Source of the DNA: an uncultured Gammaproteobacteria bacterium
GTDB lineage: Bacteria; Patescibacteriota; Microgenomatia; UBA10105; UBA927
Reading direction: 5' to 3'
Length of the DNA stretch: 63,265 nt
NCBI GenBank assembly: GCA_964629685.1
Contig: CAZVTT010000005.1
Span: 1 to 63,265 of the forward strand
This document shows positions 46,006 through 63,265 of the stretch, piece after piece; positions within the stretch are counted from its first letter, which is position 1, and each line of letters opens with the position of its first letter. The notes beneath the pieces were generated by a model. It saw only the letters and a program-made list of their open reading frames with translations, searched no databases and had not been told where the DNA came from. The position numbers were made by a program, and so were the translations under genes.

Positions 46006-46024
46006 ATCGTTTGTATTTAACAAG

Positions 46025-46049: not shown

Positions 46050-46055
46050 GTGGGA

Positions 46056-46520: not shown

Positions 46521-46600
46521 TTTATGATGGCATCTGTATGAGTTTGACACCTCTTGACAAAGTTTGATAGCTGATGATACTGTGTGATTAGTAATGATCA
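46521..46600 (+). promoter_or_regulatory. promoter overlaid by a 10-bp-phased TG(A) array
   Basis: TG at 46525, 35, 45, 55, 65, 75, 85 and 95; TTGACA at 46544 and 46554. Confidence 0.65.
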
Positions 46601-46691
46601 TATTCGCAGATCATTCCCCCTCTTAGACTGCACACAGATGAGGGATTTCCATACCACGCAAGAAACATTGCGACATCGGAAAGGAATACCT

Positions 46692-46892: not shown

Positions 46893-46984
46893 CGTCACGA
46901 CTAGTGTATTAACATACCATTCCGTGGTATGTCAGGCCACTGATCCGCTTCCTCTCTTACGGTATTCTGATATACACCCACATT

Positions 46985-47539
46985 GTGAGTCTGATTGTGA
47001 AACATGTTGCCGTCGTTCCTATCATCGGTGTTGGCATAGGTACTTCCCTGCTGTTAGCGGTAAGTGCCTGGCTGTATTTTTCCCCACAAATCCGATCAAC
47101 CACCAGCGCACATCCGATCGTAACACCACCGGCTGTTTCTCCCACTATCTCTGTCCCTAAAAACACCCCCGTACAAGGTGAATCATCCGCACTCCCTTTA
47201 CCTCAAGGGAAAGTCCCCTTTTCTGTTAGTTCCGGACAAAAAACCGGACCCCAATTCCGGAACGGATTCATAGATCCATACGACCCGAAAACCGGTGAAA
47301 CACAAACCGTTTCTGTACTGATCACAGGTAAATCACCCGTTATCACCGTAACAGCCACTATGAGAACGGACACAGCATCAAAAACAAATACCATGAAATT
47401 ACTGGAGGGTACTGCCGCGGATGGCAAATGGGAAGGCAGTTGGACAGTAACCGATACGCACCACCAAACATACAAACTGATTCTACACGCACTGGATTCC
47501 ACCGGAACAACAAATGTGATTGATATTACGCTCCGATAA
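46985..47539 (+). CDS. single-TM protein with C-terminal Ig-like domain (cassette 2 adaptor)
   Basis: Paralog of 31126..31770 (GK.F.V.SG..GP, DPK.G, TDT, W.V.DTH, ITxR end); start codon uncertain. Confidence 0.75.
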   Translation: MSLIVKHVAVVPIIGVGIGTSLLLAVSAWLYFSPQIRSTTSAHPIVTPPAVSPTISVPKNTPVQGESSALPLPQGKVPFSVSSGQKTGPQFRNGFIDPYDPKTGETQTVSVLITGKSPVITVTATMRTDTASKTNTMKLLEGTAADGKWEGSWTVTDTHHQTYKLILHALDSTGTTNVIDITLR

Positions 47540-47540
47540 T

Positions 47541-48479
47541 ATGAAATCATTTCTGCGCATCTTGATTCTGACCGGAGGGTGTTTGATGGCACTTTGTACC
47601 CTTCCGCAGGTGCATGCGTGTACAACTACGGCTAATTCCACCCTTATGATCACCACTTCCTGTGGATTCGGTGGCGAGGTAGCCGGTGTCGATAACGGCA
47701 ATATCATCATTAATTCCGGTGTTACGTTTACTGTCCAAAGCGGACAGACAATCCTGCGGAATTCGGGAAATTCCATTCAGAATAATGGGAATATTGTGCT
47801 TATTGGAACCGCAAAAATTATGCAATCCTATTTGTGGTGTCTGGATGCCGACGCTGACGGATATTGTGCCGCGTTAACATACAGTTACGGCGATGTAAGT
47901 CCGGGAGCTGGGTACAGAAGACTGACGAATATGACGACACTTGCTACTGCAGACTGTAACGACAGCGTATATGGCAATAGTTGTGCGAAAAGAGTTTTTG
48001 CAATGGCGGTATCTAACGGTAACCTTGGCGGCCTCGCCGGTGCTGATTCCCTATGTCAGTCACGGGCGAATATATATGTTACCAATCCCGGAACTTTTAA
48101 GGCATGGATGTCTTCTACTACGGTAAGTGCCAGCAGCAGAATGACCCATTACACGAGTAATTACACACTGGTGGATAACACCGTCATCGCCAATGGCTGG
48201 TCAGATCTTACCGATGGCACGTTAGACAGTATCATTAATAAGGATGCAAACGGAGCAACGTTTTCTAACAATACCATCTATACGGATACCAACGCCGCCG
48301 GGGCGGTTTTTTCCGCCAATGCGACATACTCCTGCAACAACTGGACGAATGCCGGTGCATCCTATTCGCATGCTCCGGGGGCTACCAATGCGACGGATTT
48401 CTATTGGACCACCACCAATAGTCCTTCCGAAATGAAAACGTGCAATTATGCCGGCGGAATATTCTGTTTTGAACAGTAA
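47541..48479 (+). CDS. secreted protein with DUF1554-like C-terminal domain (cassette 2)
   Basis: Signal peptide, N-module shared with 30161..31114, KRVF....NGNLGGLAGADSLCQ and terminal IFCFEQ. Confidence 0.8.
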   Translation: MKSFLRILILTGGCLMALCTLPQVHACTTTANSTLMITTSCGFGGEVAGVDNGNIIINSGVTFTVQSGQTILRNSGNSIQNNGNIVLIGTAKIMQSYLWCLDADADGYCAALTYSYGDVSPGAGYRRLTNMTTLATADCNDSVYGNSCAKRVFAMAVSNGNLGGLAGADSLCQSRANIYVTNPGTFKAWMSSTTVSASSRMTHYTSNYTLVDNTVIANGWSDLTDGTLDSIINKDANGATFSNNTIYTDTNAAGAVFSANATYSCNNWTNAGASYSHAPGATNATDFYWTTTNSPSEMKTCNYAGGIFCFEQ

Positions 48480-48490
48480 TCAAGACGAAT

Positions 48491-49348
48491 TTAATCCAGT
48501 TTTCGCTGTTGGAGCATTGCCGCCGCCTCTGCCGGGTCAAAGGTATTGACGCTCAACCCCGTACCAAGTTCAAAACCCGCTCTGTGCACAAACCGTGGGG
48601 TAATCCGTAAAAACCAATTGGCTCCATGATAGATATAGTAGTTATACCCGAATGTGGGGATGCCACCGTGAACGTGATGTAATAACGGATCGTTGAATAT
48701 AGATTCTATCCGCTGCAACGTCCGCTGTAATACACCGGCTAAATCCACCAACTGGTCATCGGTAATATCACCAAATTTTTTATCTTCTTCTACCTTCGGT
48801 GCTATCCAAACTTCAAACGGCCATTGGGAAAAATCAGGACAATACGTAACAAAAAACGTATTGTTTTCTACCACGTTATTGATCGGCTCCCGCGAAAGCG
48901 CATCAAAATTGATTTGTTTGGGAACTACCACCAGTTGTGAATGCGGATGTTTAAGGCTGGCGCCCGCATGAAATCCCTGATTACAAAAAATCATGACATG
49001 CCCGTCATGCCGATGACTCTGGTATCGCGTTTTATATGCCGTAAGGATTCTGACTACCTGTTCCAGCGGTAAATGTTCCAGGCTCGATTCACAACCCGGG
49101 TCATGAATAATGACTTCATGAATATCGGTAATGGGATATTTATTCGGTACTACCCGGACTTGCCAACCGGGTTGATTGGCGTCTCCTCCGCCGATACGGT
49201 ACACCTCCGGCGGTGTCATCTGTTCATTCCCCGTACAGAACGGACATACAGAAGGTTTTTTCGGTTCAAACGATGTAGGACGGCCGGTTCTGGCAGTTGA
49301 AATAATTACCCATCTCTGTGTTTTAACGTCCGGGACGTATTTGGCCAT
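48491..49348 (-). CDS. galT: galactose-1-phosphate uridylyltransferase (HIT family)
   Basis: CPFC, VRVVPNKYP, GASLKHPHSQ. Confidence 0.88.
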   Translation of the reverse strand: MAKYVPDVKTQRWVIISTARTGRPTSFEPKKPSVCPFCTGNEQMTPPEVYRIGGGDANQPGWQVRVVPNKYPITDIHEVIIHDPGCESSLEHLPLEQVVRILTAYKTRYQSHRHDGHVMIFCNQGFHAGASLKHPHSQLVVVPKQINFDALSREPINNVVENNTFFVTYCPDFSQWPFEVWIAPKVEEDKKFGDITDDQLVDLAGVLQRTLQRIESIFNDPLLHHVHGGIPTFGYNYYIYHGANWFLRITPRFVHRAGFELGTGLSVNTFDPAEAAAMLQQRKLD

Positions 49349-49357
49349 ATCGTACTC

Positions 49358-50365
49358 CTACGTATTCACTTCAAACTGATCCAATAATGCACGAACCTCT
49401 GCTATTTTCTGTTCGGTGATCGGAACCTCGACTAACCCGGCATGCGGCTGGCCGTAATACAAATAACTTCCTACCGGTGCGTGCAGCATGATAGGTAACG
49501 CCAGCAGATCATCTTCCCCATCCACCAGGATTACCCGTTCGGAATGGGCTTCACCGTGTGTTAACCGTTCCGACCATACTTCTATTTCCGTCAGCGCGGC
49601 ATAGGAAATATAGCCGGGACCGCTTTGTACCCGCACAACAGGTAACGTATCGAATTTATACGCAGTTACGGGCTGATACGGTTTCCGGCCGACTTTAAGA
49701 TCGATTACGGCAAGAGACGGCGTAATTCCGGCAGACATGACCACATGTGTTGTCATATCACCGACGGTAATAACCGTATTCCCCTTACGCAGTGCTAAAC
49801 GTTCCGCGATTTGCGCATCTGTTAACAGTTCACCAATCGGCTGCTGCAAAGCCAAACGCAGTTTTTCCGGCATAACCAAACGACCGTCGGTATCTATTTC
49901 GCCCTTGCGGATACGGGTAGAAGAAATGGGAGTACCGTCAGCTGCATGAATGAGCGGTACTTCTATAAGCGCCATGGCCTGCAGTCCGCGTTGACGACGA
50001 AGATCGTTTATCTGCTCGCCGCGAAATCGATTATCCGGTGTCACGATTATGGCATCAAAATAATCACTGGCGGCTGGTTCGAGTGCGTCGGAAATGGGAA
50101 TAACCACGCAGTGCGGTACTTTACCTTGTTCCAATAGCCATTCCGTCAACTGTTTTTTTCTTTCGGCATATGAACCGACAGCTATTCCCCCTTTATACAT
50201 CCGGATAAAGTCATCGGTGGTAAGTCCTATAGTGACATCTTTTCCTTCGGAAAATGCCCGTTCCAGCAGATGTTGGTGACCTTTGTGTAATTGGTCAAAT
50301 GTTCCGGCGACAAAAACATGATTAAACATAGTTGCGTAGTCATCATCGCAACTTGCACGCGTCAA
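49358..50365 (-). CDS. archaeal-type phosphopantetheine adenylyltransferase fused to DUF359 (GTP-dependent dephospho-CoA kinase-like)
   Basis: AGTFDQLHKGH, PISSTRIR; VGDMTT, VIDLK, VDGEDDLLALP, YGQP. Confidence 0.85.
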   Translation of the reverse strand: MTRASCDDDYATMFNHVFVAGTFDQLHKGHQHLLERAFSEGKDVTIGLTTDDFIRMYKGGIAVGSYAERKKQLTEWLLEQGKVPHCVVIPISDALEPAASDYFDAIIVTPDNRFRGEQINDLRRQRGLQAMALIEVPLIHAADGTPISSTRIRKGEIDTDGRLVMPEKLRLALQQPIGELLTDAQIAERLALRKGNTVITVGDMTTHVVMSAGITPSLAVIDLKVGRKPYQPVTAYKFDTLPVVRVQSGPGYISYAALTEIEVWSERLTHGEAHSERVILVDGEDDLLALPIMLHAPVGSYLYYGQPHAGLVEVPITEQKIAEVRALLDQFEVNT

Positions 50366-50366
50366 G

Positions 50367-51641
50367 TCAAGGTAAGGAGACCGATTGTTGTCCGGATGGA
50401 GTTACCGGAGGAAATGCTAACGCCGTCCGGGCACCAAGAGTACGGCGGCGCTTTCCGACTCTGTTTATCGGGATAAGTTTGCCGTCCAACGCGCGGATAC
50501 ACCGCGAAAGACTATACATACCGATACCTGTTCCTTCGACATTTCCCGACCACTGGGTAAATCCTTGTATAAATGCTCCGTCCTGATTCATATGATCAGG
50601 GAAGCCGGGGCCGTAATCATCAATGAGCATAAACCATTGGTTGCTGTTCCGGGAGTCTACTGCCATTCTGACCGTCACTCTGCGTCCGTCTTTGGGCCGT
50701 TTTTCCAAGGCAGCGTAAGCCTTAACTATATTCTGACCGGCATTATTGAGCAACAAGTCGATGAGTGTATGGGAAAAGACGACTGCGGGCAGAGTACCGT
50801 CATAGGGAATCCTCCCCACGGTTTCCCTGGCATCCGGTGTGACAAGAGCGATTTCCCGAGCCATTTGAACGGATATTTCCGGGTGATAGCCGCGGTTTTG
50901 GCGATGCAAATCGACCCAACGCTGCAACTCATCTCCGACCTGCGCGGGAATGTCGTGTAACGGAACTATTTCCGGCTCCATGGGAAGCAAGGCATCGGCG
51001 ATTCTCACAACTTCCGCCAGTAACGCCATACTGGAATGAATGCTTTCGCGATGATCCGCATACGCCTGCCCGGCATACCCGTCGCGGGTGAGCAACGCCA
51101 ATGTCCCTTTGATCGGTAACATCGCTCCCCGATAATCATGGAGCAGTAACGAAATTTTACTTTGCATGAATGCGAGGGATTGTGGAGTAGCCAACTTTAT
51201 ACCGACATACCCTTCCTGATGCGGATGAACCAGATCCCACCGGGTAACATGCGGGTCTATCTGAGCCCGAAGTTCCGCCAACGGCTCATCGTATCTGGAA
51301 GCAGCCTGAGCATGCTTTAAGGTAACATGTAGCGGGGTAAACCGTTCCAAAGCCTCACGGAACGGCGCTTGCCCGGGATATTCATCGGGAAACATATACT
51401 TCATCCCCTCCCGTGCAATCCACTCCCGACTGAACCACAACGCTTCCAGCGCCTGGTTGATTTCGGCAACGGGAGAAACACATGGCTCACCCGTGTTTGC
51501 AGTATCTACCGTACTTTGTACTTGTCCGTATGGAGAAAAGACTACGTCAGGAAGTACATCTACGGGATGAACATGATCGGCGGGGACTGATACCTGAAGA
51601 CGCTCACTAACCATTACTACGCTGAAACGATTTGACTCCAA
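50367..51641 (-). CDS. histidine-kinase-like HATPase_c protein
   Basis: LLLNNAGQN (N box), DDYGPGF (G1), GTGIGM (G2). Confidence 0.75.
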   Translation of the reverse strand: MESNRFSVVMVSERLQVSVPADHVHPVDVLPDVVFSPYGQVQSTVDTANTGEPCVSPVAEINQALEALWFSREWIAREGMKYMFPDEYPGQAPFREALERFTPLHVTLKHAQAASRYDEPLAELRAQIDPHVTRWDLVHPHQEGYVGIKLATPQSLAFMQSKISLLLHDYRGAMLPIKGTLALLTRDGYAGQAYADHRESIHSSMALLAEVVRIADALLPMEPEIVPLHDIPAQVGDELQRWVDLHRQNRGYHPEISVQMAREIALVTPDARETVGRIPYDGTLPAVVFSHTLIDLLLNNAGQNIVKAYAALEKRPKDGRRVTVRMAVDSRNSNQWFMLIDDYGPGFPDHMNQDGAFIQGFTQWSGNVEGTGIGMYSLSRCIRALDGKLIPINRVGKRRRTLGARTALAFPPVTPSGQQSVSLP

Positions 51642-52501
51642 TCTTCCCAGAATTTCCTGATGCCACTATCTGTAAGCTGGTGTTTTATATCGTATTCACT
51701 CCATTCCAAATCAAGCGTTAATTCCCGATATGGCAGATCCGTTAACCCTGGAACATCGTAAACGAAATTCTCCGGCGGTACGGCAAACGGCGTGCCGGTA
51801 CCGGGTTCTGACCACTCGGTAAACAATTTATACGGAATGGTAATTATATCACTTTTCAGCTTCAGAGCGAAGAACACGTGATTGAGAGTGCGCGTACTGG
51901 CGGTCAAAACCTTCACATGTCCGTCTCCGAGACGATACATGTCTATGATATTTGCCACCACGTCCATTCCGTTTTCCCCCCGGTCATCCAGTCTGCCGAC
52001 AAATGGTGAAACATAAACCTCGTAGTTATGATGTTTGGTAGCCGCGTAAACGGCAGCAGCCTGTTCCTGCGAAAATACTAACGTGATATTGACTGGCCCT
52101 TCCTGACAAATTATTTCCGCAGCCGTAAGCCCTTCCCTGGTACAGGGGAATTTAATAACCGCCTGAGGAATCCAAAGCAGTCTTTCACGGGCTTGATGCA
52201 CCATGTCTTCGGCAGATAACGTATCGGGATTCCCGATAACCTGAATGGAAATAGGACCTTTCGTAACTGAAGCGATCTCCTGTACTGTTCGTTTATAAAA
52301 TTCCTCTGCTTCCGCAGCGGTTAATGTTTTCGTATCCGATTTTTCTGCCTGCAGTGACTTTAATGCATTTTTAGCGATAAGTGTAGGATTCGTAGTTTGC
52401 CCATCCAGTGCACCCAGATGATGTTCCCGCAGCATTGCATCAGCCGCTTTACTCTCATGGGGGTCACCACCGTCGATATAGATATGGGTTGATTGAATCA
52501 T
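51617..52501 (-). CDS. tal: transaldolase
   Basis: IDGGDP, GQTTNPTLI, VIKFP, VNITLVFS, YVSPFVGRLDD. Confidence 0.93.
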   Translation of the reverse strand: MIQSTHIYIDGGDPHESKAADAMLREHHLGALDGQTTNPTLIAKNALKSLQAEKSDTKTLTAAEAEEFYKRTVQEIASVTKGPISIQVIGNPDTLSAEDMVHQARERLLWIPQAVIKFPCTREGLTAAEIICQEGPVNITLVFSQEQAAAVYAATKHHNYEVYVSPFVGRLDDRGENGMDVVANIIDMYRLGDGHVKVLTASTRTLNHVFFALKLKSDIITIPYKLFTEWSEPGTGTPFAVPPENFVYDVPGLTDLPYRELTLDLEWSEYDIKHQLTDSGIRKFWEDWSQIVSA

Positions 52502-52767
52502 ACAAAGAGATCCTCCTGAAACGGTAAACCACTATATGTACTGTCTGCGTATTTACTGTATCACACTGCTCGATATACTCAAAACTATCCCCGTGTTCAA
52601 TCTAACCTATAATATTTATATACGCTCCCTTATCTGCTATACTAACACCTCGCACATTACCATAACGGAAAGGTCCTGCAGACGTATATTCGGAGATCCT
52701 GAAACAAGTTCGGGATACCAACTGTACTTCGGCAGGGCCTTTTCGCGCAAAAAAGAGGACACACCCA

Positions 52768-53322
52768 ATGAAACGAACCTACTGGTTAATACTACTCTGC
52801 GTATTGCCGGCGCTCGCGCTGGTATTTACGGTCAAAGTGAACGCGGAAAATCAGACCACGTTCATCCCAATCACCCGGACATCCGTTTCCACAGGAACAC
52901 CGACTGGTACACGAACTCCTGTGATGACACGCACACCCGTTGGAACTCCGACACCGGACACCCGGACTGCCTGTACACTTGAAGAGGCATATTATGAGCC
53001 GGAATACAATATCCGAATCTTCCTGACATCCTCCGGAAGACCGGTATATGCCGTCGCTCTTATTTATTATGCCGACGTTGATAGTATTGGCATCGTGCTG
53101 GGCGAACTGACTGACGAGTTTTTCACACCGGAATTTGGCATCGCCGTTGATGACGCTCCCGCAGAAAGTGAACTCATTACACTGGAGGGAACACTAACCC
53201 AAGAAGGAGACTTTCTGAGCGTCACAATTGGGCGCTGCGGCGACGACTTTCGGTTTGAATACGAACTCACCCAAGTGACGGGTGGCGTGCCAGCCCATCC
53301 GACCAATACGCCGAAACCATAA
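52768..53322 (+). CDS. secreted protein with Pro/Thr-rich linker
   Basis: Signal peptide, TP repeats, SD GAGG. Confidence 0.75.
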   Translation: MKRTYWLILLCVLPALALVFTVKVNAENQTTFIPITRTSVSTGTPTGTRTPVMTRTPVGTPTPDTRTACTLEEAYYEPEYNIRIFLTSSGRPVYAVALIYYADVDSIGIVLGELTDEFFTPEFGIAVDDAPAESELITLEGTLTQEGDFLSVTIGRCGDDFRFEYELTQVTGGVPAHPTNTPKP

Positions 53323-53468
53323 AGTAACCTTGCGCGAAAGATACCCCAGGTACAAGAGCGGCTGTGCTATGACTGCCACTTAGCATGTTCGCTGCCTCCG
53401 CTCTTGTATCGTTTCCGTATGGTTTGTGTTCTCACCGTTCTCTAGACTTCCCTTTTTTCAAATTCAAG

Positions 53469-55619
53469 TTAATTCGGAGCGTGGACCGTACCGTTTCCGT
53501 CATCATGCGACCGATCATTTATCCGCGGATCCGTTTGACCGAACGAATTATGGTTCACGTTCTTAGCGGATAGATATTGCTTTACCGAACCGGCGAACGG
53601 AGTAGTTTGCGCTTTACCGCCAAAGACGTCGGTATACCAGACTTCCGATCCGCCAGCGTTTTCCAAAACCGGTGGCTGAAAATACATACCCCGGTGTAAT
53701 CCCCGGAAGGCTGAACGCGGATCGTCCCAGGTAATTCCCGTGATCTTTCCGTAATTCGTGACCGAATCACAACTCCCGCCACGGGCTTGTCTGCCTCCGG
53801 CCAGTTTTTCATAACACAGATCCATAGAGTACCCCACGTTATTCGGCTTACCCGGATAAAAATATCTGTTGGCATCTTCTACGTCAAACAACAGATTGGC
53901 ACCCCAGAGCAATCGTCTCCCGCCCGAAGTACTGAGCGAAATCGTTCCCGGCCAGGCTTCATAAAAATTCATAGAGAATGTGCCGTCCGGTACCAGAAAA
54001 TGCTTTTCAACGCAGCTGCGTTGAATAATATTCCGGGCGCCGCTACCGCGGGAACCGGGATAATTGGCATTCGTAGCAGTCGTACCTAAGACAATAGGAG
54101 TCGTCCGATCTCCTTCCGCATCACACAAATTCGTAAATTCTCCGGCTTTCCCGAACTGCATGAGCGTCGCAGTCATAGCCTGCATATCATAGGCAGCCGA
54201 AGGACCCGTACACTTCACAAAATACATAACTTCATGCAAATTGTTGGTGAAGGCATCTCCCGTACTTACCCCCTGATGCACCTTGGCCATATGGAAACAC
54301 CGGGCACCTATATTTTTCCACTTCGGTGTGGAATTTGTTTTTACCGGAACCACAACTCCCCCGGTGGGGTTTGCATCAAATTGGTCCGTTCCCATATCCG
54401 GTTCACCATTGGCCCATTCTATTTTGTGTCCCACATGGTCTTCATGACGCATCATGCCGACGGCATTGTTATCCAACTGTTCATTTACGTATCCAAACGG
54501 AATACCGGCGGATGCGAGTTCCGCGTCGCTGATTTGTCCGTTTTTATCGGCATCGTAGGCAAAATGTTTCCGTACATCATTCCAGATCAATGATTTACTC
54601 GGATCACGGCCATGTTCATGCCCAAACGAACATCCGGTTTTAGGATCAACCGGCGGATGCCAGGTAGGATACCGTTTACCGTCAGGTCCGATTACGGAAT
54701 ATGCATCATGTATGGCTTTGGTACAGGTATCCCATTTCGTGGGTGTCCACAATCCCAACGCATGACTATTTCCACCTGTTGACGTTGAACCGGATCCCGC
54801 GGCAGGTGCGCCTCCGATCTGCGTTGTAGGGATCGGCGTATTGGTCATACTGTGTCCGGCCATCGGGGTAGGCGTTTTGGTAGCGGTGGTGCTGACCGGT
54901 GATGGGGATGGCGTTTTGGTTGCGCTCATGGAACCAGCAGTACTGTCCGTGGTATAGGTAACGACCAGCCTGGGGGATTTTTTGGTAGCCGGACTTCCCC
55001 AGATATACTTACGCCCCCACTTGGAGCCGCTCCCTTTGAGTATGAAAACCATATTTTCGCGTTCTGCCGTGGTAACCAACTCTTGTACAAGCTTGGTTAC
55101 ATCCAGTGAATACACGGTATTGGCTTTCCACTTCACGTTATCACTTTGCGTCACGGACGTGGTCGAATGTATCCGGCGTGAGGGCGGATTACTCCGGGAG
55201 AACGGTTCCGTATTATTTGCCGATTCGGCAAATATAGTGAGTCCGACAGGAATCCAGGAATCTTCCGGCTGGGTAACTTCCATACGGGCAGATAAAACCG
55301 TAGCTTTTTTAGGAATACCGGTTCCGGAAAACCGGACACCTAAATACGAATTGGCGGTATCTGCGCCTGTTCCCAACCAGATTTTTTCCGTACCCACGGT
55401 AACCGTTTTACCGTCTTCATTGGCAATATCGGCTTCCTGCGCCACCGTTAACACTCCCGTAACCGACGCTGCCGCCGCCGCGTTCGTACGGACGTCCGGT
55501 CGGATTAACGGCAACACCACGACAATACCGATAAACAGCGTTGCTATAATAAATAGTGTGAGAATTCCCCAATGCGTATCCAGCAGGGAACGTGATTTTT
55601 TGGTTGTTTTTCGTTTCAT
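53469..55619 (-). CDS. TM-anchored surface protein: beta-sandwich, PT linker and His-rich C-terminal domain
   Basis: TM, DVRTNA, WHPP..C.FGHEHG, HEDHVGHK, HQG motifs. Confidence 0.8.
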   Translation of the reverse strand: MKRKTTKKSRSLLDTHWGILTLFIIATLFIGIVVVLPLIRPDVRTNAAAAASVTGVLTVAQEADIANEDGKTVTVGTEKIWLGTGADTANSYLGVRFSGTGIPKKATVLSARMEVTQPEDSWIPVGLTIFAESANNTEPFSRSNPPSRRIHSTTSVTQSDNVKWKANTVYSLDVTKLVQELVTTAERENMVFILKGSGSKWGRKYIWGSPATKKSPRLVVTYTTDSTAGSMSATKTPSPSPVSTTATKTPTPMAGHSMTNTPIPTTQIGGAPAAGSGSTSTGGNSHALGLWTPTKWDTCTKAIHDAYSVIGPDGKRYPTWHPPVDPKTGCSFGHEHGRDPSKSLIWNDVRKHFAYDADKNGQISDAELASAGIPFGYVNEQLDNNAVGMMRHEDHVGHKIEWANGEPDMGTDQFDANPTGGVVVPVKTNSTPKWKNIGARCFHMAKVHQGVSTGDAFTNNLHEVMYFVKCTGPSAAYDMQAMTATLMQFGKAGEFTNLCDAEGDRTTPIVLGTTATNANYPGSRGSGARNIIQRSCVEKHFLVPDGTFSMNFYEAWPGTISLSTSGGRRLLWGANLLFDVEDANRYFYPGKPNNVGYSMDLCYEKLAGGRQARGGSCDSVTNYGKITGITWDDPRSAFRGLHRGMYFQPPVLENAGGSEVWYTDVFGGKAQTTPFAGSVKQYLSAKNVNHNSFGQTDPRINDRSHDDGNGTVHAPN

Positions 55620-57505
55620 GAACCCTCCTGTTTGGCTTTGACCGCAGTCAAAGAATGGATATGTTGCACAATTGCATGCGCATTAATTTCGGCAAACTCA
55701 AGTAATTCGGCAGGTTTTCCTGACGGTGGAATTTTGTGTACCGCCAAATGCACAAAGGTGGAAGCGGAGCCCTGAAGTGCACTCAAAACGGCCTCTCCAA
55801 GTCCCCCTTCCGGATAATGATCTTCTACCACAATAAGTGCGGTAGTACTGGCGGCTTTCTTTAATGCCGCGCTGTCTATGGGCTTAACCGAATAGCAATC
55901 CAGCACCTGCACAGCAATACGTTCTTTTTCCAGCTGACGCTGCGCTGCCAAGGCCTCATGAACGGTATACCCTGCGGCGATTACGGTTACTTTCGGTTTA
56001 CCGATTTTGGCCGGGAATAGGTGAGATCCGCCAATCGGAAATTCCGTTTCCGGCGGATACAGCATCGGCGTCGCTTCCCTGGTAGCCCGGATGTATCCGA
56101 TACCATCTGCTTGTTGGAATATAGTGGCAGTCAACTTTTCTGCGGAGAGAGCGTCTGCTGGGTATACCACAGTTGATCCGGGTAAAGCGCGGAACAATGC
56201 CATATCTTCCAGCCCCATTTGGCTGGCACCGTCTTCTCCCGTGACAACACCGGCATGCGTACCGCATACCATAAGTGAGATACCCGACAAAGCCGCCATT
56301 CTGAATTGATCATGGGCACGGGTTAAAAAACACGCGAAACTGGATAATACTGACCGGAATTCCCGTTTGGCTATACCCGCCGCCATAGTCACCAGGTGTT
56401 GTTCGGCAATGTAGCACTGAATAAACCGTTCCGGAAAGGCTTTTGCAAATGCGTCGGTATAAGTTGAATTCTGCACATCCCCGTCCAAAACAATAATCTG
56501 GGGATGGGATTCACCTAAGCGTACCAGCGCGTTTCCGAAAGCTTTTCTGGTTGAAACCGGAGCCTCACCGGAATATTCCGTCGGGACATATGGTGTATCT
56601 TTTGCAAACACCGATTGTTGGGTATGTGTCTGATCCCGGGCAGCAATGGTGCCACGCAGACTTAAGTTCACATTCCCTAACTCCCTGACAGCCGTTTCGC
56701 ATTCGCCCGCAGATAACGCCTTACCGTGCCATCCGGATTTGTCTTCCAGGAACGGTACTCCTTTTCCTTTTATCGTTTTTGCCAGTATCGCTACCGGACC
56801 GGCGGTATAGGCTAACGCTTTTTCGTATGCCGCATCTATTTCCGCAAAATCGTGCCCGTCTATTACCATGACATTCCAGCCGAACGCTTCAAAACGGCGA
56901 CGGTATACCACCAGGTCATGTCCAAGCTGTGTGGTTTGGGACTGCCCCAAACGGTTTATATCCACAATTGCCACCAGATTATTCAGTTTTAACATCGCCG
57001 CATGCGAAAGTGCTTCCCACTGTTGCCCTTCCGCCAATTCACCGTCTCCGAGCAATACGTATACCTGCGGTACATGCAGCCAACTGTCCGTTTCATCTTT
57101 TTGATATTGTGTCCGGATTGCCCAAGCTTCACCAACGCCCAAAGAAAGTCCCTGTCCGAGAGAACCGGTGGCAGCTTCCGTAAACGGAAACCGCGGTGTC
57201 GGATGTCCTTCCAGACGGCTTTGGAATTTGCGGAACGTGAGGAGTTCTTCTTCCGAAATTACTCCGGCAGCAGTATATAAACCATAAAATAACGGAGATG
57301 CGTGCCCTTTACTGAAAATGACCCTATCGTTTACCGGATTTGACGGATTGTGCGTATCGTATCGTAAATACTTAAAATACAGCGTCGTCATGAGGTCTAC
57401 GGACGATAAGGAAGATGTCGGATGGCCACTCCCCGCCGCTGTGGAACTCGTTATGCAATAATATCGGATAAGTTTGGCGAGGTCTATCAGGTTCTGACGA
57501 TCCAT
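55616..57505 (-). CDS. tkt: transketolase
   Basis: SGHPTSS, FSKGHAS, ATGSLGQG, GDGELAEG...DINR, IAEQH. Confidence 0.96.
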   Translation of the reverse strand: MDRQNLIDLAKLIRYYCITSSTAAGSGHPTSSLSSVDLMTTLYFKYLRYDTHNPSNPVNDRVIFSKGHASPLFYGLYTAAGVISEEELLTFRKFQSRLEGHPTPRFPFTEAATGSLGQGLSLGVGEAWAIRTQYQKDETDSWLHVPQVYVLLGDGELAEGQQWEALSHAAMLKLNNLVAIVDINRLGQSQTTQLGHDLVVYRRRFEAFGWNVMVIDGHDFAEIDAAYEKALAYTAGPVAILAKTIKGKGVPFLEDKSGWHGKALSAGECETAVRELGNVNLSLRGTIAARDQTHTQQSVFAKDTPYVPTEYSGEAPVSTRKAFGNALVRLGESHPQIIVLDGDVQNSTYTDAFAKAFPERFIQCYIAEQHLVTMAAGIAKREFRSVLSSFACFLTRAHDQFRMAALSGISLMVCGTHAGVVTGEDGASQMGLEDMALFRALPGSTVVYPADALSAEKLTATIFQQADGIGYIRATREATPMLYPPETEFPIGGSHLFPAKIGKPKVTVIAAGYTVHEALAAQRQLEKERIAVQVLDCYSVKPIDSAALKKAASTTALIVVEDHYPEGGLGEAVLSALQGSASTFVHLAVHKIPPSGKPAELLEFAEINAHAIVQHIHSLTAVKAKQEGS

Positions 57506-57569
57506 AGAGCTATAATACCGACTATTCCGGGAAGCGTCCAGTGTGAAACAAATTACAAATACACGTCAA

Positions 57570-59549
57570 TTACTGCGTGGAATTACTTTGCGATTTTTCT
57601 TCTATACAGCGGCGTAATTCATCCGTCATGGTCCAACCGCAATCTCCGTTGGATTGCCGCGCGCAGGTTTTTCCCTGATAACAAGCATACACTTCACGAT
57701 ATTCACAGGTAGACATAAGTTGTTGATCCGCACAGATCTGTGAACTGCAGCCGGTAACGACACAGGCCTTATTCCGGTTTGAGAGAGCCGTTTCACAGGC
57801 TGATTTTTCATTAAATGTTTTTAAACCTTCGTATGCATATGCTCCGCAGAATTGCTTCTGTGCACATACGGTAGTGGTTTTGTCGAACCACCAGAGATTC
57901 TGACAGGATCCGGTAGGACACACCAAGATAGGGTCACACGGCGCCTGAATACACTGCACATCCTGATAGTGACACCCTTCCCCCGGTGTGGGAGTAGGTG
58001 TGGGGGTACGGTCCCGATTACAACCTTCCGGTACAACGCTTCCGGCCGCAACCCAAGCCTGGTACGCGGTTTTTTCCGCATCGGTAAGTGGTACGGTAGC
58101 CATGGTACACATGACACCATCCCTGGGAATATTCCCTTTGCAGCCGTTTGGCCAATAACTTCCTTCTCCGACAAAATTCCAGCACACGGTTTGATATTGG
58201 GCCAGACATTGCTTTAATTCCGCCGTCTGGGTCCAACCGCATTGACCATTCGCCTGTGTCTTACAGGTTGCCGAGTTGTAACACGCATATTCCGGCTTTG
58301 CCAGACATATAGTAGATATTTGATCGGCCAAATTCGAATTTATACAGAGCTCACCGTTACAACCCGCAATTTTACAGGGAGCCTCTGCCCGAAGCGGATC
58401 TGCCTGTACCCGAAGCCAATCTATGGCAATCGTGGTCGGTTCGTTCCCGTAGGGTCCGGAGGTAGAGCCGAATAAGCCCATCATGTTCCGTGAGAAGTTT
58501 AGGGAAAGCGTATCCATGGTATCGGGTATTTTGAGCGTATATTCCCGGAGCGTCCCATCTATCGGAATGGAAACCGGCTGGCTATATTTTTTGGCGTCTG
58601 AACTCCCGGGTGAAACGACGATACGCAGTTGTACGGTGGACTCTTCCGGACAGATATTTTCGGATTCGGAAATAGCGCAGGGCGGATTATTATCCAGACA
58701 GGCAGGTCTGGGCGTACAGGTGGGTTTCGGCGTTGCCGTCGGCGTAACAGCCGGTGTGGCGGTTGGCTTCGGACACCATACAATACCCGGTGCCGGATCA
58801 CAGTAGATGACTTCACCATTGTCGTCTGCGACACCATCCGCACAGGCCGGTCTGGGGACACAGGTAGGATTGTCACACTGATTTACTTTTTCCCAACCCG
58901 ACGGTACGTCACACGGCGTAGAAAACTGCCGGCATTCCCCCGTCTGTTTATTTACCGCAGGCTGAATAACCTGCACGCAGGCAGTATCATCGCCCGTGAT
59001 TCCTTCCAGCAGATAGGCCATATCCGTAGGCCGCTTATAAACGAATACCCACATATACAGCAGTTCAATAAAATTCCGCAGTTTAGCCGGAACTAATTTA
59101 AGCCAGGCCGGCTCGTTGGGAATAACTCCCGCAGCAGTGGTATCTGACGAGTTGTCTGTCGCTCCCAGCACGCCACCCTTGGCCCCACGCGCCGATACCC
59201 GAATGACAATTTCCTTGTTGGCAAACGGTGCATTGGTGGAAAATTTATCATCATTGCTTACCTGAATGGCTGCAGCATTGTTGGGGAATGTGGTGACAAA
59301 GCTATTATTTTTAATTTCTGCACTATCTCCGGTGGATTTCCAGCCTTCTTTTCCGCTCTCAAAATCCCAGCGCTTTATAACCACTTTATCCGAAGCGGCA
59401 CGGGAACGCGTATCCGTATTGGAACGGTTTGCAGCCTGGTAGGTAAGCGCCACCGCAAACACAGCAAAGGCCACACCGAATACCCAGATAAGAATATTCC
59501 CAAAACGGCCGGAATCCAATCCCGCTGATTTTTTCTTCAATAAGCCCAT
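57570..59549 (-). CDS. TM-anchored Cys-rich modular surface protein
   Basis: TM, DTRSRA, two eight-cysteine-cluster-like modules (C..GC.G.LC...C...EY.CY...C...CGW), several other Cys modules. Confidence 0.82.
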   Translation of the reverse strand: MGLLKKKSAGLDSGRFGNILIWVFGVAFAVFAVALTYQAANRSNTDTRSRAASDKVVIKRWDFESGKEGWKSTGDSAEIKNNSFVTTFPNNAAAIQVSNDDKFSTNAPFANKEIVIRVSARGAKGGVLGATDNSSDTTAAGVIPNEPAWLKLVPAKLRNFIELLYMWVFVYKRPTDMAYLLEGITGDDTACVQVIQPAVNKQTGECRQFSTPCDVPSGWEKVNQCDNPTCVPRPACADGVADDNGEVIYCDPAPGIVWCPKPTATPAVTPTATPKPTCTPRPACLDNNPPCAISESENICPEESTVQLRIVVSPGSSDAKKYSQPVSIPIDGTLREYTLKIPDTMDTLSLNFSRNMMGLFGSTSGPYGNEPTTIAIDWLRVQADPLRAEAPCKIAGCNGELCINSNLADQISTICLAKPEYACYNSATCKTQANGQCGWTQTAELKQCLAQYQTVCWNFVGEGSYWPNGCKGNIPRDGVMCTMATVPLTDAEKTAYQAWVAAGSVVPEGCNRDRTPTPTPTPGEGCHYQDVQCIQAPCDPILVCPTGSCQNLWWFDKTTTVCAQKQFCGAYAYEGLKTFNEKSACETALSNRNKACVVTGCSSQICADQQLMSTCEYREVYACYQGKTCARQSNGDCGWTMTDELRRCIEEKSQSNSTQ

Positions 59550-59601
59550 CTAGTACAAGCATCGCAAGATGCAAAAAGTTTGTCAAGAACAAAGGGAACA
59601 C

Positions 59602-60237
59602 TTACCGCTGTTGCAGTTCAGAAATGGCCGCGGAGACTCCCCGGGGATTTTTAAAAATATAACTGGTGGATACCAATCGAGTAGCACCTGCTTCGATTAC
59701 AATCGGTGCAGTTTTATCGTTTATTCCCCCGTCGACTTCGATAGCCAGATCCGGAAGATTTCTGCGGAGAATCCGGATTTTTTCCACCGTTTCGGGAAGG
59801 AAAGGCTGTCCGCTCGGACCGGCCTCAATGGTCATAACTAACGCCAGATCTATTTCGTTTAGAAACGGTTCAAATACATCAAATTCCGTCGGTCCGTCTA
59901 TGGCCAGCCCTACTTCTACGCTTTCGTACTGAACTTCTTCCAGGAACAGACGCGGATCTACCGCTTCTACATGGGCAATAAGCCGTTTAAACCCTACGTC
60001 CGCAAGTTGTTTTACGTACTTTTCCGGATGGGCTACCATAAGATGGGCTTCAAGAGAAACATTTTCCGATACTTCACGGAACTTTTCCAGATCCATACAT
60101 GTCATATTCGGAACTAATGTGCCATCGGCAAAATCTATTTGCACCCAGGGAACATATCCTGTTACCTGTTCCAATTTCCGCTGTATTTCTGGCCATTCCA
60201 ATTCGTTTATACCGGGAATTACTTCTACCATGTACAT
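59602..60237 (-). CDS. rpe: ribulose-phosphate 3-epimerase
   Basis: QIDFADG, EAHLMV, VMTIEAGPSGQ, EVDGGIN. Confidence 0.93.
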   Translation of the reverse strand: MYMVEVIPGINELEWPEIQRKLEQVTGYVPWVQIDFADGTLVPNMTCMDLEKFREVSENVSLEAHLMVAHPEKYVKQLADVGFKRLIAHVEAVDPRLFLEEVQYESVEVGLAIDGPTEFDVFEPFLNEIDLALVMTIEAGPSGQPFLPETVEKIRILRRNLPDLAIEVDGGINDKTAPIVIEAGATRLVSTSYIFKNPRGVSAAISELQQR

Positions 60238-60319
60238 ACCGTAATATAGTTATTCGACAAATACAACGGGGAAATTGCTATAAAATGCCGACAGAACACG
60301 GCGGGCATCACCCTATGCG

Positions 60320-61018
60320 TTACGCGGTTGCAGTAAGCTCCGGGGTCTGTTCCAGTAAGCGGTCGTAGACCATAGCCCCGGCAAGCATGGAAACGGGCAG
60401 TGTGACCAGAATACCCACACCGAGCAGAATCACACCTATGAAATTTAACCCCATCACAGCGAGACTGAAGAGCAGCAATTTGCCTTTAACACCATGGGTT
60501 AGTGCCCAACTATTCCGCAATGACTGCACGATACCGGCCTTGCAGTCCAGAATAAAATACGTATAGAACTGTAGCGATACCATCAGGAAAATACCCGGAA
60601 TTATAAGAAACAAAAACCCGACAAAGAGTACTACGCCGTTTAATAATGACGCGATGCCGTACGGAATCATTCGTCTGACCGCTACCTCTGCAGTTTGACG
60701 GAATGGCTTCGGCTGACCGCGCACATAAGAAAGATAGACACCAACAAGCATAAGTGTAACGGTACCGTTTACGGCCCATGACAATACGTTCTTTATCAGT
60801 TCAAAAAAACCGCTAACCATACCGACCACATCCTGCGGGGCGGATGAAAACGGCAGCAATGCTACCTTTTGCACACCGCTAAAAACCACTTGAAACACAA
60901 AAATTATGATAATGGGTAGTAACGCCAAACCGATAAAATATAAAGGATTACGCTTATATATTTGCCAGGAAGCGCCTAACACTTCCCGAATTGAAAATGA
61001 CTTTTTTGTATTTGTCAT
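60320..61018 (-). CDS. integral membrane protein (DUF975-like)
   Basis: ~5 TMs, FLIIPGI..., SLRNSWALTHG pattern. Confidence 0.75.
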   Translation of the reverse strand: MTNTKKSFSIREVLGASWQIYKRNPLYFIGLALLPIIIIFVFQVVFSGVQKVALLPFSSAPQDVVGMVSGFFELIKNVLSWAVNGTVTLMLVGVYLSYVRGQPKPFRQTAEVAVRRMIPYGIASLLNGVVLFVGFLFLIIPGIFLMVSLQFYTYFILDCKAGIVQSLRNSWALTHGVKGKLLLFSLAVMGLNFIGVILLGVGILVTLPVSMLAGAMVYDRLLEQTPELTATA

Positions 61019-61024
61019 ACTATA

Positions 61025-61492
61025 TCACCGTTGCTCGTACGCATGAATTTGCTCTATGCGCCGGGCATGACGGGCCTCCCCTGAAAACTCCGTTGTCAGC
61101 CATGTATGGAGAATTTCTTTTGCTTGTTCCGACGTAACCCAATCCCCCGATAGTCCCAACACGTTGGCGTCATTGTGTTCCCGTGCGTGCTGAGCGGATT
61201 TAACATCCGTCGCGGCAACGGCTCTGACATTCGGGACTTTATTGGCGGCGATGACCATACCCGCAGCCGAACGGCAGATGAGAATGCCCTTTGGTCTTTG
61301 CCCCCAGGATAGCGCCGTATTATCGGTTCCGCCTACCTGTCCGGCCACGGCGAGTCCATACACGGGATAGTCATCATCAGGATCTAATGTTTTCGGACCC
61401 AAGTCGGTATACGGAAGTTTCCATTCATCCAACCAGCTTTTTATGCCTTCTTTAATCTGAAACCCGCCATGATCGGCACCCAGATAAATCAT
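61025..61492 (-). CDS. rpiB: ribose-5-phosphate isomerase B
   Basis: GADHGG, DDDYP, LICRSAAG, AREHNDANVL, RHARRI. Confidence 0.95.
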   Translation of the reverse strand: MIYLGADHGGFQIKEGIKSWLDEWKLPYTDLGPKTLDPDDDYPVYGLAVAGQVGGTDNTALSWGQRPKGILICRSAAGMVIAANKVPNVRAVAATDVKSAQHAREHNDANVLGLSGDWVTSEQAKEILHTWLTTEFSGEARHARRIEQIHAYEQR

Positions 61493-61513
61493 ATAGGTAG
61501 TGTAGCAGAAAAC

Positions 61514-62458
61514 TTATTTCTCGTCTTTCGGTTCGGGATGCCCACCATACTCATACCGCAATGCAGAAACTACTTTTCCGGCAAAAGACGGTTTGGTAAG
61601 CGATTCCGTTCTGGCTACAACGGACTTTGTAAGAATTTCTACCGGCACACCTAATTCTTTTGCGGTTTCTATTGTCCATTTCCCCGTTTCACCACCGCCT
61701 ACCCGTCCGACGTATTGGGATAACTTCCCGTCGTGTTTTAACGCACGCGACAACAATTCCATAAGCCAACTGCGGACCACGCTGCCATGATTCCAGTTTT
61801 CGGCAATTTTCGCTAAATCCAACTGATACGGACTTTTTTCTAATACGGCAAACCCTTCGGCAATAGCCTGGTTCATACCGTACTCCACACCGTTATGGAT
61901 CATTTTTACGAAATGCCCTGCTCCGTGATCACCGAAATATGACCATCCTTGTGACACCGCTACGGCATCCCAAAGCCAGGATAACTGCTGCACCGTATCT
62001 GCCGGACCACCCAACATAAGGCAGGCGCCGTGACGGGATCCTTCCAATCCGCCACTGGTACCGCAATCGATAAGTGTAATCCGTTGCGCTGACAATTCCA
62101 TGGCCCGTCTGATGGTATCTTTGTAAAAACAATTTCCGGCGTCGATAACAATATCCCCTGCTTTAAGACCAGCAGCCATAAGCTGTGAAATGACTTCATC
62201 GACTGCCGTTCCTGCGGTAACCATAACGAAAACAATACGGGGTGAAGGCAATGCTGCTACGAATTCCGCCATGGTGGTAGTTCCATGAATTTGCCCAATA
62301 ACGGTGTCGGAGCGACCGGAAGCCACTTTTTGCAACAGGTCTCCAACCACTCCTACCGTCCGGTTATACACCACCACGTTTACCCCTTGTTCCAATAAAT
62401 GCAGCACCATATTGCTGCCCATTTTCCCAAGACCTATACATCCGATGGTTTTGTTCAT
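61514..62458 (-). CDS. gnd: 6-phosphogluconate dehydrogenase (short, decarboxylating type)
   Basis: GLGKMG, IDAGN, DCGTSGG, GHFVKMIHNGVEYG, ALRYEYGGH. Confidence 0.94.
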   Translation of the reverse strand: MNKTIGCIGLGKMGSNMVLHLLEQGVNVVVYNRTVGVVGDLLQKVASGRSDTVIGQIHGTTTMAEFVAALPSPRIVFVMVTAGTAVDEVISQLMAAGLKAGDIVIDAGNCFYKDTIRRAMELSAQRITLIDCGTSGGLEGSRHGACLMLGGPADTVQQLSWLWDAVAVSQGWSYFGDHGAGHFVKMIHNGVEYGMNQAIAEGFAVLEKSPYQLDLAKIAENWNHGSVVRSWLMELLSRALKHDGKLSQYVGRVGGGETGKWTIETAKELGVPVEILTKSVVARTESLTKPSFAGKVVSALRYEYGGHPEPKDEK

Positions 62459-62466
62459 ACGTACTC

Positions 62467-62495
62467 ATCCTACCGATGCCGGTTACGAAGATCAA
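62467..62495 (-). promoter_or_regulatory. leaderless gnd promoter
   Basis: TTGATC-N17-TAGGAT-N8-ATG. Confidence 0.7.
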
Positions 62496-62541
62496 GAGGT
62501 GTCACAGTGGCGTACGTCCCGTTGACCCGACGACCGCCACT

Positions 62542-62583
62542 AAAAAATCCGCTGGGCTGTTGCGAAACAACAGGTAGCGGATT
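62542..62583 (-). terminator. intrinsic terminator
   Basis: AATCCGCT...CTGTTG-tttcg-CAACAG...AGCGGATT-TTTT. Confidence 0.65.
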
Positions 62584-63142
62584 AGTAGAACTTTCGCCCT
62601 ACCGGTAATCCTTAAATTTCCGAAAAGAAGTAGTTCTTTCCGAAAAAATACGGATTAGCCTATCGGGATAAAAAGTTAAAGAAAAATAAGAGGAGTGTTG
62701 GTTTTGTTAAATCAATGAAGAGGTCTGAGGCACAGTGAAACAGAAGTCTGCCTTAGGGGGCCAGGCGGATTCGTGTTTTTTCTGAGTATTCCCAGACCTC
62801 GGAGCATTTTTTTAACAAGGGGGTCTGACCAATATGACGGATGATTAGGAGGTGCGATTCGGCTTCTTCATTTGATGGTTGGTGATCTTCCGCGAGCTAT
62901 AGCACTGCCGCACGATTCTACATCGTCGCTGATGCAGCGCCTGCTCCGTCTTCTTACTTGATATCCGGTGGTGGCAGCTATTGGCCGCCCTGCGTGGTTT
63001 ATTCCGTACCCAAGCACCTTGCTTCCGTCATACAACATTGGCCAGACCGAACCGAAGAGAATACTATTCTCTCCAAATCGGTCTAACCAATATCCTCTAA
63101 TTTAATGTGCCGCAAACAGGGATGCATATATCCGCGTTGCAC
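62542..63142 (-). ncRNA. candidate large structured ncRNA (~600 nt), family unknown
   Basis: No ORF of 60 aa or more upstream of 62608, own promoter and terminator, several long helices whose G-U pairs work only on the minus strand. Confidence 0.5.
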
Positions 63143-63148
63143 CTATAG

Positions 63149-63177
63149 AACCTACCAGACTGATGAATTCGTGTCAA
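63149..63177 (-). promoter_or_regulatory. sigma70 promoter with extended -10
   Basis: TTGACA (63177-63172), N17, TAGGTT (63154-63149) preceded by TGG. Confidence 0.65.
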
Positions 63178-63265
63178 GCAGTATTTGAACGTATTTTACC
63201 TCCACCAACGGACTCGTCGCTGAATCCTCACCATAAGTGGCTGTACGTCTTGGTGACTCGACTAC

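Follow-up and report, generated by a model that had tools for sequence, protein, structure and literature searches.

A candidate stand-alone gene for a ~600-nt structured non-coding RNA upstream of the gnd operon in Patescibacteria

Contig CAZVTT010000005.1 (GenBank assembly GCA_964629685.1) of an uncultured, ultra-small bacterium, a stretch of 63,265 nucleotides (nt) that was analysed at its full length and is called the window here, carries upstream of its gnd sugar-metabolism operon a promoter-to-terminator unit for an RNA of ~600 nt (63177-62542, minus strand). We consider it probable that this unit is a stand-alone gene for a non-coding RNA (ncRNA), that the RNA belongs to a new, narrowly distributed family of Patescibacteria, and that it is not a leader of gnd. 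The RNA is conserved in related contigs, its helices covary, it lacks a conserved reading frame, and part of it is present in RNA samples. An earlier reading of this DNA from its letters alone (the original prediction) had proposed a new large ncRNA class or a conformational-switch RNA; the present analysis supports this proposal, as the refutation tests named with it, run as far as possible, gave no refutation. The term "large ncRNA class" describes a form and not a function. Coordinates of the RNA gene refer to the minus strand of the window unless stated otherwise.

Results

Homologues and transcription unit

Homologues of the RNA were traced outward from Gnd homologues to their contigs, and the six loci obtained in this way, including the window, are a lower bound for the size of the family. 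Group A comprises the window, L083/L086 (Gnd 70% identical), L089 (59%) and L109 (62%; the contig is cut and the 3' part of the RNA is visible), while group B comprises L088 and L090 (Gnd 58-59% identical). The RNAs of the two groups have the same ends and a different core. L083/L086 match the RNA over its full length (nhmmer E=2e-31), and the window and L083 are just ~55-60% identical over it. Two alignments were used: A1, with the 3' module of all six sequences, and A4, with the whole RNA of the window, L083 and a relative (~92-95% identical) that was rebuilt from Logan contigs of runs X17/X18.

Both ends of the unit proposed in the original prediction were recovered. The extended -10 promoter can be read at 63177-63149, and transcription is predicted to start near 63142. 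Its -10 box TAGGTT fits the consensus at just 3 of 6 positions, and the promoter is absent from the output of a consensus scan. Promoters with TTGAC(A/T), a spacer of 17-18 nt and a TA...-type -10 box nevertheless recur at the equivalent position in 5 of 5 sequences that include the 5' part (L109 is cut off). The terminator at 62583-62542 is present in minimum free energy (MFE) folds and conserved across the six sequences; it is a strong, GC-rich hairpin followed by U6-7, and a terminator scan overlooked it because the long "loop" is itself a hairpin. The elements of the unit are as follows.

63149..63177, minus: promoter, read from the sequence, with -35 box TTGACA (63177-63172), 17-nt spacer and extended -10 box TGgTAGGTT (63157-63149; TG 63157-63156, TAGGTT 63154-63149); equivalents with TTGAC(A/T) plus a -10 box at the same position in L083, L089, L088 and L090
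63112..63140, minus: P1, the 5' hairpin (RNAalifold helix 1 of A4); 5 of its 10 pairs are double-changed when the window is compared with L083
63102..63110, minus: single-stranded motif GCACAUUAA, identical in the window, L083, L088 and L090; GUACGUUAA in L089
63035..63093, minus: P2, a long hairpin of ~26 bp; 63091-63078 pairs with 63050-63037 at its base, which includes seg1 (63091-63080) with seg2 (63048-63037)
63024..63031, minus: 5' strand of P3, AUGACGGA, partner of 62841-62834
62823..63041, minus: central multi-branch domain, closed by P3/P4, with hairpins at 62989-62973 and 62926-62912; the portion seen in RNA samples
63018-63014 with 62855-62851, minus: P4, GGUGC with GCACC, inside the central domain
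62822..62841, minus: 3' strand of P3, UCCGUCAU (62841-62834), then seg3, AUUGGUCAGACC (62833-62822), the alternative partner of seg2
62720..62800, minus: P5 domain, with outer helix 62800-62791 with 62729-62720 and inner hairpin 62766-62750 with C-rich loop GGCCCCCUA
62542..62667, minus: 3' module, made of the long hairpin P6 (~62660-62603), a spacer, the two-tier terminator (62583-62546) and the U-tract to 62542
62583-62546, minus: two-tier intrinsic terminator, with stem 62583-62576 with 62553-62546, an inner hairpin and the U-tract to 62542
62537..62541, minus: AGUGG, directly 3' of the U-tract; (A)GUG(G/C) in 5 of 6 homologues, GUACC in L088

Conserved structure and covariation

The case for a structured RNA rests on compensatory base changes. 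In A4, RNAalifold gave 156 pairs over the whole RNA with 92.7% of the cells paired, and 30 of these pairs are changed on both sides against 0-7 in slid controls. In A1, 88.3% of the cells are paired and 24 of 33 pairs are double-changed, compared with 4-8 in slid controls, and none of 500 shuffles reached the observed value. In P3, each of the eight pairs differs on both strands among the window, L083 and L089, and pairing is complete in all three. P2 (A4 helix 3) has 26 pairs and is 94.9% paired, while the outer helix of P5 (A4 helices 13-15) is 95.6% paired with three double-changed pairs, L083 and L089 having one extra base pair. The stem of the C-rich loop, GCCU/AGGC, becomes GCCAU/AUGGC in the X17 relative and CAUCC/GGAUG in L083, and L089 has a 9-bp hairpin at the position of P1. 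Covariation, whose absence would have spoken against the original prediction, is thus found across the whole RNA.

Variation between close strains follows the same structure. Among the 38 substitutions listed for the X17/X18 relative, 21 lie at unpaired positions and 17 at paired ones, where 10 retain the pair, one of them as a compensated pair. The loop differences affect the CAAUA loop, the loop of the ACGAU hairpin, and the P6 and terminator loops, and a 7-nt deletion falls in an unpaired stretch. Changes that preserve pairing within helices include G-C to G-U, G-U to G-C or A-U, and one A-U to U-A swap. In the central domain, strain variants lie in loops or keep the pair.

The RNA has an MFE of -210.9 kcal/mol, compared with -162.3 +/- 8.6 for shuffled sequences (z = -5.7). 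The opposite strand folds nearly as well (z = -6.7 against its shuffles), so that folding energy alone is no proof of an RNA and covariation was relied on instead. This behaviour of the opposite strand, together with the fact that the closest sequences come from near-identical strains, could be taken to mean that the region is spacer DNA without a function, which folds and is conserved only because the sequences share a recent ancestor. We regard this as highly improbable and already largely refuted: the window and L083 have diverged to ~55-60% identity and yet keep the pairing of A4 with its double changes, the 3' module is kept in six sequences, and the RNA is detected in RNA samples.

Every helix listed in the original prediction was found, including AGGUGC/GCACCU, 62800-62791 with 62729-62720, GGCGGC/GCUGCC and ACGAU/AUCGU. 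Only its recurring GGTCTG/CAGACC module, thought to be common to the switch and to the 62800/62729 helix, has to be given up, as it is not conserved in L083. An A/U-rich linker lies between P5 and P6. MFE folding of the window, of L083 and of L089 pairs this linker each time with the bases immediately 3' of GCACAUUAA, with sequences that are unrelated among the three; this suggests a modelled outer helix that would enclose P2-P5. The GCACAUUAA motif itself occurs once in the window.

A few further features of the fold were noted. CACCUCCU at 62853-62846, on the 3' side of the internal loop between P3 and P4, equals the anti-Shine-Dalgarno end of 16S rRNA, and L083 differs here (CACCCUGU). AGUGG after the U-tract is complementary to CAC of the 5' motif GCACAUUAA, and RNAalifold pairs AGUGG (62537-62541) with CAUUAAA of that motif, without variation. 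It is possible from the sequence that the ends of the RNA could pair if termination falls a few bases past the U-tract.

Several candidate motifs were rejected. The bases of a GGAAGCA motif like that of the signal recognition particle (SRP) RNA belong to helix P3 by covariation, and the 3' side of the P3/P4 internal loop is too long for a K-turn. A CsrA-type sponge was dismissed because 13 GGA were counted by eye against ~9 expected, which is near the rough chance level. A GCACAU-AUGUGY pairing in the 3' spacer fits L083, L088 and L089 and fails in the window and L090.

Possible exchange between three strands

The segment seg2, GGUCUGGCCAAU at 63048-63037, is equally complementary to seg1 at the base of P2 (63091-63080) and to seg3 (62833-62822), which are near-identical 12-nt partners. 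As seg3 lies directly 3' of the 3' strand of P3, the pairing of seg2 with seg3 joins with P3 into a 20-bp long-range helix (63048-63037 plus 63031-63024 with 62841-62822) that contains a 5-nt bulge. This is the alternative helix that the original prediction had drawn on the shared 63048-63037 strand; it is present and covaries. The three segments read AUUGGUAGGGCC, GGCUCGACCAAU and AUUGGCCGAGCC in L083, and GUUGGUAGGACC, GGCCCUACCAAC and GUUGGCGGGGCC in L089. Across four sequences, both pairings are 95.8% paired, with 4 of 12 pairs double-changed for seg1:seg2 and 5 of 12 for seg2:seg3. Two natural substitutions in the X17/X18 relative, 63042 G>A and 62833 A>G in RNA sense, leave both helices intact. 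The proposed conformational switch gains support from this, since the two mutually exclusive pairings of seg2 each covary in three species, on alignment blocks chosen by eye. Constrained folding places the hairpin state lower in energy than the alternative, by 2.5 kcal/mol for the window, 7.4 for L089 and 11.6 for L083. From these sequences the strand exchange appears conserved and plausible, and it could equally be an intermolecular strand swap.

Coding potential

The longest open reading frame (ORF) within 62542-63177 encodes 56 amino acids (aa) on the minus strand, against 45 aa for the longest plus-strand frame, in agreement with the earlier statement that none reaches 60 aa. A conserved short ORF, in particular the 56-codon frame beginning MLYDGSK, had been named as a finding that would overturn the RNA reading. 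This frame is not conserved: L083 has nothing equivalent and reads the common CGGAAGCAAGG block in another frame owing to a 1-nt indel, and strain variants within the 56-codon frame are non-synonymous or indels. When the window and L083 are compared at the peptide level, three forward and several reverse frames of this DNA give matches, and such agreement in many frames on both strands points to conservation of nucleotides and not of codons. No conserved frame with a start signal is shared by the window RNA and its homologues.

Group B differs in this respect. Its units carry a Shine-Dalgarno (SD) site of GGAGG type and an 18-19-codon frame rich in Asn, Thr and Cys inside the structured RNA, which the window copy does not have.

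L088 ~955-1014: group B mini-frame, MTRNANTLMWTCSCTNNTN
L090 ~2875-2931: group B mini-frame, MNRNNNCNLWTCANNTNS, with an in-frame 6-nt indel relative to L088

The group B frame may encode a tiny Cys-containing peptide. Moreover, L089 has a GGAGG 9 nt ahead of a 41-codon ATG frame that is also missing from the window copy. It is therefore conceivable that the RNA is the mRNA of a small protein or descends from one, with fixed end modules and a middle that once held or still holds a mini-ORF, either as a dual-function RNA or as its ORF-less twin. In favour of this, group B shares the promoter, GCACAUUAA and the 3' module with the window in addition to its SD-bearing frame, and L089 offers a frame of its own. 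However, the window and L083 lack a start codon with a ribosome-binding site at a common position, the 56-codon frame is not conserved, the peptide match within group B is no better than that of other frames of the same DNA, and conservation is carried by helices and not by codons. We consider this origin unlikely for the window RNA.

Presence in RNA samples and strand

Metatranscriptome contigs, one in each of three runs, cover the central domain: X7 at 62823-63041, X10 at 62853-63027 and X19 at 62850-63028. These runs contain no other part of the final 20 kb of the window (43300-63265), and their contigs end in or just inside the stalk formed by seg2:seg3, P3 and P4. DNA runs from the same query (X8, X12 and X17) show thin coverage along the whole 20 kb. 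A fourth run labelled RNA, X16, covers 62576-62673 and 62770-62869. By our own estimate, three pieces would share one core by chance in roughly 1% of cases; the enrichment is suggestive and not proof, and the evidence that the core accumulates as RNA is good but not conclusive.

The metatranscriptome check asked for in the original prediction is thus answered in part: the core is covered, by contigs that carry no strand. The minus strand is predicted to be the transcribed one because promoter and terminator point the same way in every homologue in which they are readable and because the consensus energy is better on this strand (-152.7 versus -142.3, and -37.4 versus -29.5).

Relation to gnd

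The original prediction had also assigned to gnd a separate promoter for a leaderless mRNA. This promoter can be read in the sequence and is conserved in relatives, recurring at the same place in L083, L089, L109 and L110.

62456..62495, minus: gnd promoter and start, with -35 box TTGATC (62495-62490), -10 box TAGGAT (62472-62467) and ATG at 62458

The -10 box ends 6-9 nt ahead of the ATG in the window, L083 and L089, the leader in L109 has 2-3 nt, and that in L110 has ~12-18 nt and no SD site. As judged from these sequences, the gnd mRNA is leaderless or nearly so across the clade. As gnd has its own conserved leaderless promoter, the RNA is not simply its leader.

Nevertheless, a cis-acting role deserves consideration, in which the RNA would be a giant riboswitch or attenuator of gnd-rpiB-rpe whose alternative segment pairings respond to a signal and thereby control read-through into gnd. 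In each of the four group A loci, gnd is the next gene downstream of the RNA and has its orientation, both being part of the pentose-phosphate cluster; mutually exclusive conserved pairings are typical of switches; and in the window and L083 GGAUUA of P6 could pair with UAAUCC/UGAUCC of the terminator. This anti-terminator pairing of GGAUUA with UAAUCC is, however, confined to these two and not retained in L089, L088 and L090, the switch lies 250-500 nt from the terminator, and the terminator is strong with its U6-7. Furthermore, gnd has a conserved promoter of its own whose position fits a leaderless mRNA, the RNA and gnd of group B are separated by an RRM-protein gene with its own promoter, and relatives without the RNA retain the same operon. 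A leader function is thus also unlikely, and we continue to prefer a stand-alone gene.

Known RNA families and searches for further members

The statement that the RNA fits no recognised consensus was borne out. A cmscan of window positions 60000-63265 against 4227 Rfam 15 families with permissive filters (E<=10) gave no family match; the chance matches in the window, namely mir-1890 (28.5 bits versus 76), mir-5918, snoR20a and a frameshift site, are far below threshold. In the five homologous loci, a scan against Rfam 15 (E<=1) returned chance matches only, outside or unrelated to the RNA. Classes covered by Rfam that gave no match include OLE, ROOL, GOLLD, HEARO, raiA, 6S, RNase P, transfer-messenger RNA (tmRNA), SRP, group I/II introns, riboswitches and T-box. 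ARAGORN found no tRNA or tmRNA in the window, and a search of the literature found no description of the RNA.

Covariance model R1, built on the 3' module, scores 98.8 bits at this module of the window, and over 96 sources it found the six training sequences plus palindromic reverse matches only. Phage and plasmid collections contain nothing similar to the RNA. A degenerate pattern for the P2 hairpin, TTGGTWRGRCCGAN{20,45}TYGGYYYKRCCAA, gave one chance match in a phage gene among viral contigs and, in JGI metagenome contigs, 13 chance matches in coding regions and no new member. In the latter scan, positions 2999-3053 of L102 hold a direct duplication, TTGGTTAGACCGAATTGG...TTGGTTATACCGAATTGGTCTGACCAA, which has the look of a repeat element rather than of a homologue. 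The family is real but, as far as visible, small and patchy.

Genomic slot and neighbours

In homologous Patescibacteria contigs, the slot consists of zwf, one or two Avd-like "23S rRNA IVP" genes, the RNA, and gnd-rpiB-rpe. The IVP assignment is above the Pfam threshold in L089 and weak in L083 and L110. One or two such genes lie between zwf and gnd in 8 of the 10 relatives' loci that reach upstream of the slot:

Avd-like IVP genes: L089 888-1208; L090 1343-1657; L092 1410-2158; L094 2639-3370; L110 164-484; L083 2-202

An RRM-protein gene often accompanies the Avd-like IVP genes, and no reverse transcriptase lies close to them; by tblastn, neither an IVP nor an RRM gene occurs in the window. 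The Avd-like neighbours prompted a comparison with the template RNA of a diversity-generating retroelement, which was rejected because no reverse transcriptase gene was called in any locus and there is no variable repeat. In L082, the closest relative (Gnd 79%), a gene for a 266-aa Y1 (IS200/RAYT-type) transposase (17-817, opposite strand) adjoins gnd and is flanked by palindromes of the CCCCCGGGG type; this contig ends before the expected position of the RNA.

A tandem repeat lies beside the RNA gene at the end of the window.

63202..63265, no strand: tandem repeat unit of 64 nt + C (period 65), upstream of the RNA promoter; it is context and not part of the RNA

The joint from 63265 via C back to 63202 occurs in Logan contigs of the source runs, where the 52-nt core of the repeat has ~3.7x depth (54 versus 14.4). 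The assembly breaks at the repeat, and a 22.7-kb contig continues beyond it. A 37-codon frame at the window end lies inside the repeat and is probably not coding, as 65 is not a multiple of 3. The repeat was rejected as a TIGR (tandem interspaced guide RNA) or CRISPR array, as its units are near-identical and have no spacers. Run X18 also contains another haplotype of the terminator region (62536-62618, ~91% identical), which continues into TGTAGTCGAATCATCGAGACGTACAGCCAT in place of the gnd promoter; TGTAGTCGAATCATCGAGACGTACAGCCAT resembles the 65-nt unit upstream of the window RNA. Judging from this sequence, some strain may have the RNA gene flanked by the repeat on both sides, or duplicated.

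These surroundings raise the question of whether the stretch between zwf/IVP and gnd is a variable slot that a mobile or cassette-like element has occupied, the RNA being its cargo or what is left of it; the folding, in DNA or RNA, would then benefit the element and not the cell. Its distribution among close relatives is patchy, the slot also houses unrelated small genes (L089 and L090), the L082 transposase gene adjoins gnd, and the 65-nt repeat flanks the window copy, with a similar repeat after the terminator in one X18 variant. On the other hand, no second copy of any part of the RNA occurs within the window, and the source-run contigs hold one copy per genome at an identity of at least 80%, which is not what is expected of a mobile or repetitive extragenic palindromic element. 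Orientation and position are constant across species with Gnd just 58-70% identical, neither terminal inverted repeats nor an adjacent recombinase occur, and the unit has a bona fide promoter and terminator and covaries at the RNA level with many G-U pairs. We therefore judge a mobile origin to be quite improbable.

Discussion

The most probable reading of these data remains a stand-alone gene for a new structured ncRNA of Patescibacteria. From this, we infer action in trans, switching, processing and possible partners as follows. A sigma-70-type promoter would start the RNA near 63142 and the two-tier intrinsic terminator would end it near 62542. The transcript would fold, in order, into the 5' hairpin, GCACAUUAA, P2, the central domain with P3/P4, P5 with its C-rich loop, the A/U-rich linker, P6 and the terminator. 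Within this fold, seg2 would pair either with seg1, completing P2, or with seg3, stacking on P3 and closing the central domain by the 20-bp helix. The RNA may act on its own as a stable RNA or as an RNA-protein particle, with the central domain of ~180-220 nt as its long-lived functional core. The three-strand exchange would decide whether this core is closed off, and the closed form may in addition provide a stalk for processing or let molecules contact one another, so that exchange of seg2 would close, release or multimerise the core.

Going further, we tentatively propose that the RNA may be the founding member of a new class of large ornate RNAs in Patescibacteria. It would have a cassette layout, in which a constant start module (promoter, hairpin and GCACAUUAA) and a constant end module (long hairpin and two-tier terminator) enclose an exchangeable structured core. 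It is possible that in such RNAs the three-strand exchange closes and releases the core of ~200 nt or swaps strands between molecules into an RNA-only or RNA-protein assembly, for which the Avd-like and RRM genes next to the RNA would be candidate partners.

Several observations weigh against these interpretations. Only six loci are known, in a narrow clade, and the two loci of group B share the ends of the RNA and its first hairpin only. The RNA is absent from L110, L092, L094 and L112, where an IVP or other small gene abuts gnd, and its absence from four related loci indicates that it is dispensable. The A4 structure was predicted from the same sequences in which its pairs were counted, which inflates the proportion of paired cells and should affect the number of double changes to a much smaller extent; the blocks for the seg1, seg2 and seg3 counts were chosen by eye. 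The hairpin state is always the ground state in the energy model, and the long-range helix may never form, or may form between molecules only. The RNA runs were selected by querying with this very stretch, and their contigs have low depth and come without strand or depth profile.

Large RNAs with extensive structure are rare in bacteria, and the ones understood so far have proved to be ribozymes, scaffolds of ribonucleoproteins or RNA cages. To our knowledge, almost nothing has been described on the ncRNAs of the Candidate Phyla Radiation (CPR)/Patescibacteria. As the tiny CPR genomes have little spare DNA, a conserved non-coding gene of 600 nt is costly and probably useful. A feature that stands out as unusually clear and testable is the three-strand exchange, in which covarying pairings connect a local hairpin with a long-range helix, and there are hints of a high abundance of the RNA in the environment.

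RNAIII of Staphylococcus aureus is a dual-function regulatory RNA with C-rich loops. The window RNA resembles it in its size of ~0.5 kb, its many hairpins, and its C-rich loop (62762-62754) and C5 run after seg3; by analogy, G-rich ribosome-binding sites would be possible pairing partners of these C-rich stretches, and a tiny peptide may be encoded in group B. However, the window copy has no ORF and its genome is largely leaderless, and the resemblance is one of form only. The flanks of rRNA that are cut by RNase III form processing stalks of stable RNA precursors. In a similar manner, the 20-bp helix of the window RNA is made of sequences that flank a structured core, and contigs from RNA samples end in or just inside it (63041/62823), although these contig ends may simply reflect low coverage.

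The closest counterparts are the orphan large "ornate" bacterial ncRNAs OLE (~600 nt), ROOL (~580 nt) and GOLLD (~800 nt) (PMC9723947, PMC12286853). The window RNA is like them in its size, its own promoter and terminator, its many conserved helices with long-range pairings and its lack of coding capacity, as well as in its narrow, patchy distribution and a function that is not obvious from neighbouring genes. It differs in having no sequence or structure match to their Rfam models and in its host, theirs being Firmicutes or phages, and the Patescibacteria loci have no OapA-type or tRNA neighbours. Oligomer formation has been demonstrated for OLE, ROOL and GOLLD (PMC9723947, PMC12286853). The raiA motif RNA of ~200 nt is likewise an abundant stand-alone structured RNA (PMC10861870, PMC12968392), and the core sizes would be similar if the central domain is the stable species; there is, however, no Rfam match, the phyla and the architecture are different, and the primary transcript of the window RNA is three times longer. 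In form, the RNA comes closest to OLE, ROOL, GOLLD and raiA, while being a member of none of these classes.

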